Below, one piece after another: positions 59,677 to 62,628 of a stretch of DNA of 64,000 nt. The notes under the pieces were generated by a model. It worked only from the letters and a program-made list of their open reading frames with translations, was not told the DNA's origin and did no database searches. The DNA lies in the IMG/VR virus record IMGVR_UViG_3300013006_000027, positions 14,428 through 78,427 of that record; one strand, 5' to 3'. The position numbers and the translations under genes are program-made. This stretch comes from a virus. Every line of letters starts with the position of its first letter. Within the stretch, counting starts at the first letter, position 1.

Positions 59677-62628
59677 ATGGACATGAAACACCTACTTTCA
59701 ACAATTGATCAACTTCAAAGTAAAGAAATACTTAATGAAGGTAAAGAAGCAAGCTATTCACCATCATACCGTGTAGGTAAAACTGGTGATTTTAGTGATA
59801 AACCTCACATGAAAAGAGGCACACCAGTTGCTGGTAAAATAGGTAGGTATGGAAAAACTTCAGATGAGTTAGGTGATCCTGATCATGATCCTGATGATGA
59901 TACTCCTACTGGTGCAGAGAAACGTGGGCGTGGTCGTCCTAAGAAAGCAGGTGGAGAAGCAGACACTAAAGATAGATACTCTGGTGCAAAAGACCTTCAA
60001 AGCATTATGATTGGTAAAGCGCCCAAGACATTGCCAGGTAAAAAAGGTAAGGTACATAAATCTCCTCAGGATAAAGAAGTTACAGAAAGTAAGAGTTTAA
60101 AAGATTGGTTTGAAAGACTTGATGAAGCATTGAATGAAGCTAGTCTATCACCAACACAAACGTTAGTTCCTGGAATGCAAACAGGTTCACAAAAAGCACA
60201 ACCTACTGTAATTGACGTTAAAAATAATCCTGCATTAAAGGCAGCATTAGACAAAGCTACAAAAGACAAGCAGTTATCAGTAGTTGGAATCACACAACCT
60301 TCATCAGGTATGACTTCAGGTACATCTACTACGGGTATGTCTACTACGGGTATGTCTACATCTGGTACAAAGATTGCAGAAAAAATTGAACCACCAATCA
60401 AAACTAATCCTGCTGAAAAGGGTAAGTATGATGGTAAGACAGTAGCAGAACTTAAAAAATCATTAGCTAGTGTTAAGGCTCGTATGGCTTCTATGAAAGA
60501 ACAAGGTAAAAAAGTTCCACATGATTTACGTGGTCATTTTAGTGAGTTAACTTTTGCTATTCGTGCTAAGCAAGAAGGATCAGGCAAGTGGGGAGCTATT
60601 AAAGAAGCAGATCCTCCTCCTGATGGTGGTACAATATCTCCTTTAACTCTTGAGGGTAAAAAGCAACATTATGATAAAGGTTATTATGATAGTTTAGCCG
60701 CTAGTAAAAAAGACGGTGCTAAATCAATTGTAAAAACTCGTAAAGATACGGTAGCTGAAGAAAAAACAGTTACCCGTGACAATCACGCCGAAAAAGCTGG
60801 TAAGAAAGTTACTAAAGATATTGAATATGATGAAAAAGTCAAAGACAAGATCCATGGTAAAAAGCGTGGACCCGAAGATCAAAAAGCTGAAAGAGCTGGT
60901 CGTAAAGTAACTAAAGATATTGAGTATGATGAGAAGAAATTACCAACTATGGCTCATGTTAAAAAAATGTGCAAAGATGGCTTAACTGTCGCTCAAATCT
61001 TAAAAATGCATCCAAAGTGCGATGCAACAGCATTAAAGAAAATGATTAGTGATTGCAAAAAGAAAATGGTAAAAGAAGGTAGAGACCAGCATTTACATGC
61101 AGCTTACCATGAAGGTAAATCACATGGTCTAAGCAAGATGCCATATAGCTGCCGTCATGATGACATGGAAGAATCCCGTATGTATCATGAAGGGTACAAG
61201 TGTGGTCTTGATGAGTGCTATGGTCAACAACCAATTGTAGGTTATGTTGGCGAAGAATCTGATAGCGACATTGTAGACACAATGGCAAGTTATGGTGCTC
61301 GTGGTATGGAAGAAGGTGTTCTTGGTACGTTAGGCGGCGGCGCACTTGGTACAATGTTAGGTGGACCAATTGGCGGAGTTATTGGCGCAGGATTAGGTCA
61401 GTCATATACTCAAGGTGGATCTGATTTAATAGAAGTATCAGGTGATACAGTCTACCCTAACGCAGAAGTAATCAAGTCAAAAAATGGCAAGCCAGTTGGA
61501 GAAATTTACCAAGACGGTAATGATTGGGGTTGCTTCCACTATCGTGCTGACCGTGGATATGATATGATAGACAGTAGAGAAGATGCTATTGAAGCACTCA
61601 AAGACCTACATCAAGAAACAGGTCGCAGTCGTCCAGACCATACTATCAAAGGTATGGCAGAAGATGGTATGGAAGAAGGCAATGCTTTCACTGGCATGTT
61701 AGCCAAGACTCCAAAAGGTGGTAAATTCTCTTTCGGTGGAAAGACATTTACTGACACCAGTGACATTGACGAAATGGCATTTGAAAGTTTAGATAGACAA
61801 CTAAATTCACTATTAAATGAAGGTGTGTCAGTATCTATATCACAAGGTCAACAAGGCGCTCCAAACTCAGTTAACGTAAATGCAACTGATGCTGAAGCAG
61901 ATAAGCTATTGGCATTTGTTAAACAAGCTGGTTTAGGTATTTTCGGTGGCGATGCTGAAAGTTCACATTCATCTATGCCTGCTGATAAGGTTATGGATAA
62001 TAGCAAAGAAGATGAAGCTGAAATCGCGGTTGTTGATGACCATGATGATATGTTAAGCTTAATTCGTAAAATGACTGGTCAAGGTCCTGCTAAGTCAAGT
62101 GATGATTATGAAGATGAAGAAAGCCACGGCCATGAAGAATGTAATGAATGTGGTGGAATGATGGAAGCCGGCCATTCATGTGGTTCAAAAGAAATGGTTG
62201 ATGAAGTTCAGTCAGAAGACCAAATGACTTATGAAGTAGCGGAAGATGCTGCTGAAGAAAATGCAGCAAACGCTCAAGCTGGTGCAGAAGCAGAAGCAGC
62301 CGCAGATAAGGCAGAAGAAGCCGAAACTTCAGCCGATGAACATACCGAAGCTGAAGAAGATATGGCTATTGGTGTTTCTCATGGTGGTAATGGTAAAACA
62401 TACGGTGGAGAAGAAGAGGAATTAGAAGAATCGTTTGCTAATGCAGCAGATGACGATTTTGAAGCTGACATTGACTTTATGACTAAAGTTATTTCTGGTG
62501 GATTAAACAAACAAAAATCTACTGGTCAGACAACGATTCCTGTAATCGCAGGTCAAACTGATCGCATGGGATATTCTACTACTAATGAATCTATCAACGA
62601 TTGGAAAAAATTAGCAGGTCTCAGATAA
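59677..62628 (+). CDS. Large modular virion (head) protein with many hydrophobic-x-Glu sites
   Basis: LNE/VTE/IAE/IKE/VAE/VKE/MEE junctions, AT-hook, glycine zipper, internal 17-aa repeat, C-terminal KKLAGLR. Confidence 0.7.
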   Translation: MDMKHLLSTIDQLQSKEILNEGKEASYSPSYRVGKTGDFSDKPHMKRGTPVAGKIGRYGKTSDELGDPDHDPDDDTPTGAEKRGRGRPKKAGGEADTKDRYSGAKDLQSIMIGKAPKTLPGKKGKVHKSPQDKEVTESKSLKDWFERLDEALNEASLSPTQTLVPGMQTGSQKAQPTVIDVKNNPALKAALDKATKDKQLSVVGITQPSSGMTSGTSTTGMSTTGMSTSGTKIAEKIEPPIKTNPAEKGKYDGKTVAELKKSLASVKARMASMKEQGKKVPHDLRGHFSELTFAIRAKQEGSGKWGAIKEADPPPDGGTISPLTLEGKKQHYDKGYYDSLAASKKDGAKSIVKTRKDTVAEEKTVTRDNHAEKAGKKVTKDIEYDEKVKDKIHGKKRGPEDQKAERAGRKVTKDIEYDEKKLPTMAHVKKMCKDGLTVAQILKMHPKCDATALKKMISDCKKKMVKEGRDQHLHAAYHEGKSHGLSKMPYSCRHDDMEESRMYHEGYKCGLDECYGQQPIVGYVGEESDSDIVDTMASYGARGMEEGVLGTLGGGALGTMLGGPIGGVIGAGLGQSYTQGGSDLIEVSGDTVYPNAEVIKSKNGKPVGEIYQDGNDWGCFHYRADRGYDMIDSREDAIEALKDLHQETGRSRPDHTIKGMAEDGMEEGNAFTGMLAKTPKGGKFSFGGKTFTDTSDIDEMAFESLDRQLNSLLNEGVSVSISQGQQGAPNSVNVNATDAEADKLLAFVKQAGLGIFGGDAESSHSSMPADKVMDNSKEDEAEIAVVDDHDDMLSLIRKMTGQGPAKSSDDYEDEESHGHEECNECGGMMEAGHSCGSKEMVDEVQSEDQMTYEVAEDAAEENAANAQAGAEAEAAADKAEEAETSADEHTEAEEDMAIGVSHGGNGKTYGGEEEELEESFANAADDDFEADIDFMTKVISGGLNKQKSTGQTTIPVIAGQTDRMGYSTTNESINDWKKLAGLR

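Follow-up and report, generated by a model that had tools for sequence, protein, structure and literature searches.

We examined a 64,000-nucleotide (nt) stretch of viral DNA (positions 14,428 to 78,427 of IMG/VR record IMGVR_UViG_3300013006_000027; here called the window), which on its sequence matches is part of a jumbo myovirus of the T4 superfamily, in the Atu_ph07/PA5oct/RaK2 group, and in particular one long open reading frame (ORF) in it that encodes a modular protein of 983 amino acids (aa), P0001. The reading that we favor, and consider fairly probable, is that P0001 is a cargo or core polyprotein targeted to the prohead, cut at its joints by a protease of the T4 gp21 type and built of exchangeable cassettes. 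P0001 would be brought into the prohead during assembly by peptides that mimic both ends of the scaffolding protein, namely, an amphipathic leader ending in L-N-E↓G (arrows mark candidate cuts, and h stands for a hydrophobic residue) and a C-terminal tail of the form h-x-D-W-K-K-L-A-G-L-[KR], whose probable docking site is the inner surface of the capsid shell. A prohead protease of the T4 gp21 type would then cut after Glu at joints of the form h-x-E↓small residue, typically G-[VML]-[AE]-E↓G, thereby removing the leader and freeing a set of small modules. Once freed, the AT-hook and the Lys-rich basic peptides would likely sit on the packed AT-rich DNA, and the glycine zipper might be membrane active after ejection; the other units released would be a Cys-rich helical domain, a segment called module A, a small alpha/beta domain, a zinc-knuckle-like peptide, and acidic peptides. 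As every module forms a closed unit between two joints, a carrier gene could acquire, drop, or duplicate modules, or pass them to another carrier, without harm to the remainder.

The ORF is present with the length and position given in a preliminary description of the window, and the AT-hook, the glycine zipper, the His/Cys cluster, and all of the h-x-E junctions listed there were found in the translation. The duplication of a Lys-rich peptide that it reported is visible in the DNA as a repeat (60787/60886) that is 84% identical over 50 nt, and the 15-base-pair (bp) tandem repeat that it noted was confirmed. The parts of P0001 are as follows, with AlphaFold confidence given as the predicted local distance difference test (pLDDT) score.

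59677 to 62628, plus strand: P0001, 983-aa modular protein (ORF translation, stop codon included).
59677 to 59739, plus strand: N-terminal amphipathic leader, residues 1-21, ending I-L-N-E↓G, with a predicted helix at residues 3-14.
59920 to 59946, plus strand: AT-hook KRGRGRPKK, residues 82-90, with G86, P88, and K90 at least 90% conserved.
60097 to 60138, plus strand: second helix ending L-N-E↓A, residues 141-154 (predicted helix 141-153), the motif being present in 95% of homologues.
60325 to 60359, plus strand: 15-bp tandem repeat, 2.3 copies with a 100% match, encoding an S/T/G/M-rich linker.
60424 to 60576, plus strand: helical hairpin module, residues 250-300, pLDDT 83-92, with generic hairpin matches only (Z <8).
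60787 to 60935, plus strand: two Lys-rich peptides, AE(K/R)AG(K/R)KVTKDIEYDEK, whose copy number and position vary across the family.
60937 to 61236, plus strand: core block B, Cys-rich helical domain, residues 421-520, pLDDT ~90, in essentially all listed homologues.
61302 to 61316, plus strand: junction G-M-E-E↓G, left copy of an exact 15-nt direct repeat, which opens the variable slot.
61315 to 61401, plus strand: glycine-zipper module, residues 547-575, optional, in about half of the listed homologues.
61435 to 61662, plus strand: module A, residues 587-662, bounded by LIE↓ and GMAE↓, in ~20 of 119 homologues.
61650 to 61679, plus strand: junctions G-M-A-E↓D-G-M-E-E↓G, right copy of the 15-nt repeat, which closes the slot.
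61684 to 61941, plus strand: start of core block C, small alpha/beta domain, residues 670-755, pLDDT 60-87.
62125 to 62184, plus strand: His/Cys knuckle CxxC...HxC, with C822 and C825 invariant and C835 at least 90% conserved.
62194 to 62481, plus strand: acidic disordered region, residues 840-935, with conserved VDE, VAE, and LEE sites.
62587 to 62625, plus strand: C-terminal tail ..SINDWKKLAGLR, a scaffold-type candidate docking peptide at the extreme C-terminus of nearly all family members.

P0001 found no match in Pfam, PHROG, or PDB profile searches or in a tblastn search of 50,697 phage records (cultured phages); the ESM Atlas gave nothing usable, and comparison of its AlphaFold model with known structures (VIA wide and Foldseek against the PDB) returned generic helical hairpins only (Z <8, E >0.3). 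Its family is metagenomic and large, comprising more than 1,820 proteins at 90% clustering and 762 clusters at 50% identity, with lengths of about 550 to 1400 aa among relatives that have the same gene order. The AlphaFold model, built with 80 homologues, places 667 of the 983 residues below a pLDDT of 50 (68% disorder) and has three confident units, the hairpin at 250-300, the Cys-rich helical domain at 421-520, and the alpha/beta domain at 670-755. Core blocks 360-540 and 670-983 occur in nearly every homologue and are colinear in 113 of 119. The AT-hook has the R-G-R-P core flanked by basic residues that the rule for this motif calls for and is thus predicted to bind DNA. A further copy of the Lys-rich peptide lies near the C-terminus in P0023, P0024, P0043, P0044, P0048, and P0051.

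Sequence comparisons support the view that P0001 is modular and that its modules move between loci. Searches with single modules, which the preliminary description had proposed, recovered two of them in different carrier proteins. The first is a basic 50-aa module of P0121, the 864-aa protein that the same description had paired with P0001; the relevant features of that gene are the following.

11048 to 13642, plus strand: P0121, 864-aa second carrier of the same kind, with an N-domain homologous to PA5oct gp0206.
12446 to 12595, plus strand: shared basic 50-aa module (SGLQAYLGNKKYGK..KYDKLDEEDMAE), residues 467-516 of P0121, bounded by LEE↓ and MAE↓.
12887 to 12931, plus strand: internal copy of the tail peptide (EGQEDLDTIKRLLGE) in P0121, left arm of a 45-nt repeat.
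13595 to 13639, plus strand: terminal copy of the tail peptide, ..DLDTIKRLLGK, at the P0121 end, right arm of the 45-nt repeat.

The 50-aa module recurs at 62-78% identity in the P0001-family proteins P0020, P0022, and P0031 and in the homologue from G002, one of the two relatives with which we compared the window (G002, 359.6 kilobases [kb], complete; G001, 263 kb). It is found in at least 497 proteins of at least four carrier architectures, one of them a 292-aa type at an unrelated locus, and it is sharply delimited, by h-E-E↓S at its left border and by h-x-E↓small residue at its right. It is single copy per genome, lying in P0121 here and in the P0001-type protein in G002. Module A (residues 584-662 of P0001), in turn, occurs twice in P0292, an otherwise unrelated metagenomic protein of 1243 aa, at 84-87% identity and with each copy bounded by GVAE↓; nine G-V-[AT]-E↓[GA] joints divide P0292 into about ten modules. 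For P0010, P0139, P0167, and P0292, genomic context was taken from IMG/VR loci. Loci related to P0292 are L186-L240, and a 692-aa variant in L186 lies within a row of genes with amphipathic N-terminal leaders.

Within the family, the slot between the peptides ASYGA and GNAFTG holds no module or any of at least four different ones. It is empty in P0013 (GMEE↓GVAE↓GGMEE↓G) and contains the zipper plus module A in P0001, the zipper plus module B in P0002, module B alone in P0017, module C in P0018, module D in P0042, and a long string of modules in P0024. Accessory modules also change slot, with order inversions in 249 of 7140 homologue pairs, and a 130-aa module follows block B in P0024 and precedes it in P0022; the modules are thus found in other carriers and in more than one order. 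These real cassettes, together with the N-terminal leader and the scaffold-type C-terminal tail described below, go beyond the preliminary description.

That description had also proposed that modules are exchanged through short linker homology. Movement between loci is borne out by these comparisons, and exchange through linker microhomology is plausible and only suggested. The linker GGTATGGMRGAAG does occur in both genes, in four copies (12770, 61303, 61651, and 61666) where none would be expected, in a test that is circular because the same four copies served to define the pattern. In P0001 an exact 15-nt repeat (61302 and 61665) brackets the 363-nt zipper-plus-A insert, and in P0121 a 45-nt direct repeat, identical at 43 of 45 positions, brackets a 708-bp glycine-zipper/hydrophobic block; both pairs fit insertion or deletion by recombination at repeated joints, and the 15-nt identity is as expected from codon bias because the peptide GMEEG is repeated. 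Across contexts, the shared 50-aa module shows 73-81% DNA identity and 50-62% third-position identity, and it is under purifying selection. The low third-position identity means that the sampled exchanges are old, and we therefore rejected a recent transfer of this module at the DNA level; the loci retrieved for this comparison contained module A DNA from no other carrier.

P0121 resembles P0001 in kind and differs in sequence. In shorter homologues of P0121, one of 581 aa and the G002 protein of 504 aa, the C-terminus lies at the first tail copy, and the internal copy in P0121 corresponds to the true C-terminus of the G002 protein. Homology between P0001 and P0121 was rejected, the best BLASTP match having an E value of 0.69, and the shared GGPIGG, which the preliminary description had pointed out, belongs to low-complexity glycine zippers and does not indicate homology. 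The tail in which P0121 ends is similar to that of P0001.

The tail of the P0001 family is invariant in type, h-x-[DQ]-W-[KR]-K-L-[AS]-G-[IL]-[KR] (..DWKKLAGL[KR]) at the very end of the protein, and scaffolding proteins end in the same type of peptide: IDIRRLAGL in G002, IDIKRLAGL in G001, DELRRLAGIK in the PA5oct-like phage PAC2, and INDLKRLAGIKK in Atu_ph07, with a looser version in GAP32 and 121Q. The scaffold gene lies between the protease and major capsid protein genes in G001 and G002. In a six-frame translation of the window, the motif occurs three times only: P0001 and P0121 each end in it, and P0121 has one further copy internally. It is C-terminal in exactly three G002 ORFs (the scaffold and the P0121 and P0001 homologues), against 0.04 expected. 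PA5oct gp0203, which is positioned like P0001, has it at the N-terminus and once internally, followed each time by V-x-E↓S. Only the terminal peptides of P0001 resemble a scaffold, there being no PHROG match along its body to the T4 gp22-like scaffold (phrog_10922). An 88-aa ORF (G002:C1:172749-173015) also contains the tail motif, internally (..DNLDDLKRLAGIN..).

Scaffold-like peptides at both ends and many candidate cut sites would likewise be expected of a disposable accessory scaffold (core) protein like T4 gp67, gp68, or gp22, which would assist in giving the large prohead its shape and, once broken down, would be expelled, with modules that have no role after assembly; T4 core proteins are indeed cut into several fragments (PMC9026906). 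We regard this as improbable, given that the conserved folded modules and motifs (the AT-hook, CxxC..HxC, and module A at 84-87%) are hard to explain in a protein made to be discarded and that module content differs between close relatives, which would be odd for a size-determining core.

The leader of P0001 is a candidate capsid-targeting propeptide of the T4 type. The T4 gp21 protease cuts after L/I-x-E, and N-terminal head-targeting leaders of 10 to 20 aa are thus removed (PMC9026906, PMC5694885); the former paper sets out both the T4 capsid-targeting sequence and the L/I-x-E rule. The P0001 leader conforms to the T4-type rule of a propeptide of about 10 to 20 aa that ends in L/I-x-E and precedes a small residue. 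The family consensus is MDFKDLLSKLDQLNE↓A, with L19 and E21 kept in 111 of 111 homologues and the residue after the candidate cut (P1') being A in 85 and G in 25. The predicted helices at 3-14, 141-153, and 701-713 each stop at or just before a conserved L-N-E, the last of them, in core block C, ending in L-N-E↓G, with LNE 713-715 present in 118 of 118 homologues. A genome-wide regular-expression scan found the leader on P0001 and its G002 homologue only, plus one doubtful 160-aa ORF; the leader is therefore family specific, and we rejected the idea that it is a genome-wide tag.

Leaders closer to those of the T4 internal proteins occur elsewhere in the window.

6859 to 7990, plus strand: three tandem small genes starting MRAHEFITE, (M)RAREFIAE, and MRATEFIIE, like the T4 internal-protein leader.

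The products of these genes end in ..KPFKGY[KA]R and resemble T4 internal proteins with a capsid-targeting leader. Relatives have arrays of eight such MRAxEFIxE-type genes (L197 11829-19620), one of which ends in ..QRMRLLAGLTGK. A ligase-like protein encoded at 34557-35714 begins MNLTESLASLRNKLETIDVPLLTE↓D and may carry a cleavable leader.

Both G001 and G002, each of which carries a P0001 homologue, encode a Peptidase_S77 (T4 gp21) protease (E values of 3e-29 and 3e-28) next to the scaffold and major capsid genes, and their major capsid proteins have the expected L-S-E↓S site. The joints of P0001 and its relatives share the consensus G-[VML]-[AE]-E↓G, and GM.E occurs four times in P0001 alone against 0.4 expected (p=0.0005). 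Across the family, there is a clear enrichment of [LIVM]xE[AGS] (3- to 4-fold) and G[VML][AE]E (3.4- to 5.8-fold), with the controls [LIVM]xD and [AST]xE depleted (~0.8-fold), and boundaries of module-only matches lie at h-x-E ~3 times more often than expected. From these features we infer that P0001 is cut at its joints and is located in the head.

Several observations weigh against that interpretation. The excess of h-x-E in P0001 alone is modest ([LIVM]xE, 24 versus 15.2 expected, p=0.012; [LI]xE, 10 versus 8.0 expected, not significant). The family-wide enrichment counts come from related, nonindependent sequences, and the test of module boundaries is dominated by one module, its rows also being nonindependent. 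Alignment breakpoints in P0001 coincided with h-x-E sites in 7 of 22 cases versus 4.7 expected, which is not significant (p=0.18). V or M at the third position before the cut (P3) departs from the L/I that is classical for T4. The source record, a 78.4-kb IMG/VR fragment that is ~23% complete by estimate, lacks the protease, scaffold, portal, and major capsid genes, and because of this incompleteness the protease is known solely from relatives, at 32-42% identity. The P0001 gene adjoins tail genes. Finally, gp0203 is only a positional analogue because it has neither sequence nor profile similarity to P0001 (homology was rejected after BLASTP and profile comparison were both negative), and the PA5oct paper reports the presence or absence of proteins only, with no analysis of their processing.

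The modest excess of the motif in a single protein, the nonsignificant breakpoint test, and the high predicted disorder would suit an uncleaved, largely disordered multidomain virion protein that functions as a single chain, such as an internal protein that binds or condenses DNA or a protein associated with the neck; in it the h-x-E joints would be helix ends, linker conventions, or recombination scars. Cleavage at the joints is itself a prediction. We judge this alternative unlikely, as the joints are Glu specific, with both control motifs depleted, and module boundaries fall exactly after Glu in unrelated carriers. The leader, moreover, has the length, form, and P1' residue of a T4 propeptide, and a gp21-type protease is present in relatives.

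As for the genomic setting, the best matches of the sheath protein are in the jumbo phages Phosso, Atu_ph07, the PA5oct group, SCTP-2, and RaK2-like phages. The neighboring genes encode the tail sheath (1341 aa), one tube and one tube-like protein, a protein for head completion that resembles gp4 (TnsA fold), and small proteins. In the window the order is sheath, tube, tube-like, 120, gp4-like, 160, 207, and P0001, and it is matched in G001 and G002 by sheath, tube, tube-like, 120, 145, 160, 200, and the P0001 homologue (numbers are lengths in aa). P0001 is thus downstream of the sheath and tube genes, with head-completion-like and virion genes intervening. The equivalent cluster of PA5oct extends from the sheath gene 0195 through gp0203, and gp0202 and gp0203 were identified as virion proteins by mass spectrometry; gp0206, the homologue of the P0121 N-domain, is also a virion protein. 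The gene immediately upstream of P0001 is the counterpart of gp0202.

59034 to 59657, plus strand: 207-aa gene upstream of P0001, starting MMKSLKRYIAE↓S, a homologue of PA5oct gp0202 (E value of 2e-10).

The start of this 207-aa protein resembles a T4 capsid-targeting leader. The 141-aa protein encoded at 58056-58481 matches PHROG "head closure" and Pfam Tn7_TnsA-like_N and appears, on these matches, to be a nuclease-fold head-completion protein of the T4 gp4 type. PA5oct gp0204 (L185 2247-3842), labeled hypothetical in its record, reads as a large terminase with a Walker-type ..GRQLGKST.. and sits between gp0203 and gp0206. The ORFs at 62714-64000 and 6323-6862 have a common N-terminal motif, ..PND..D..RTAF.K...NF; the one downstream of P0001 has fiber-like Gly/Asn/Thr-rich repeats and matches large repeat proteins beside cargo-like genes in contigs L118 and L157.

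A gene that follows those for the sheath, tube, and tube-like proteins, an arrangement known from many myoviruses, might encode a tape-measure or tail-lumen (ejection) protein, whose C-terminal tail would bind the tube or terminator and whose glycine zipper would enter the host membrane. The presence of a glycine-zipper segment and of a lysozyme-like gene two genes downstream in G002 would fit such a role; a T4 gp29 homologue was not found in G001 or G002, a blank that says nothing either way. We nevertheless consider this role very improbable. P0001 has no long helical rod, its helices being short and most of its length disordered, and a protein that measured the tail would not be expected to vary in length to the extent seen among relatives with the same gene order. 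The zipper is optional, the tail peptide is common to the head scaffold and not to tail proteins, no tape-measure match was found in Pfam or PHROG, and in PA5oct gp0203 and gp0206 flank the gene that by its motif is terminase-like.

The nearest parallels to such a putative prohead-targeted polyprotein are the T4 internal proteins (IPI, IPII, and IPIII) and Alt. Like P0001, they have a short amphipathic N-terminal leader that ends in hydrophobic-x-Glu, with a small residue after it; phages related to the one studied here encode a gp21-family protease, and this phage itself has the MRAxEFIxE-type genes. Alt has propeptides at both ends (PMC9026906). No homology of P0001 to IPI-III or Alt was found in Pfam, PHROG, or the tblastn search of phage records, and P0001 differs from these proteins in being far longer, in having many modules with internal joints and a C-terminal scaffold-type tail, and in the frequent V or M at P3. 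T4 gp22, gp67, and gp68 and the inner-body or ejection proteins of phiKZ, 201phi2-1, and SPN3US lie inside the head and are processed at several X-x-Glu sites by a protease related to gp21, and their fragments stay with the DNA or are ejected (PMC9026906, PMC5694885). These proteins have not been described as strings of interchangeable cassettes distributed across unrelated carriers, have no homology to P0001, and, in the phiKZ group, are cut at S/A/G-x-E, whereas the joints of P0001 are hydrophobic-x-E.

For the tail peptide there are analogies in other systems. In encapsulins a short C-terminal cargo-loading peptide directs different proteins inside an HK97-fold shell, and a C-terminal docking peptide is likewise common to the scaffolding protein of 80alpha and CpmB of SaPI1. 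The latter two are the subject of a paper on competing scaffolds (PMC5644958). The likeness is limited to the tail, as the peptide sequence and the system differ, and binding of the P0001 tail to the capsid is a prediction. A further analogy, and only that, is with viral polyproteins such as those of picornaviruses (3C Q↓G sites), in which independent units are split by a repeated short cleavage motif; P0292, with its nine joints, shows this form. Unlike in picornaviruses, the virus is a DNA phage, the units are accessory peptides and domains rather than replication machinery, and the protease would act inside the prohead.

If our reading of P0001 holds, this phage clade would have two portable address labels (the leader and the scaffold-type tail) and a standard cut site, so that any small module could become cargo and be swapped between carriers. 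The labels would be candidate tags for loading foreign proteins into large capsids, and the joints would provide an annotation rule for hundreds of "hypothetical" metagenomic proteins; the reading can be tested in cultured relatives such as PA5oct, with its known virion proteins gp0203 and gp0206. Giant phages bring tools into the cell by means of head-internal and ejected proteins, and how this cargo is chosen and evolves is poorly understood. More tentatively, and with somewhat less than even confidence, we suggest that uncultured T4-like jumbo phages may keep a common library of cassettes framed by the prohead-protease joint G-[VML]-[AE]-E↓G and rehung on several scaffold-mimicking carriers. 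Such a library would amount to a plug-and-play delivery system, in which peptides and minidomains would be packaged along with the DNA for injection into the host.

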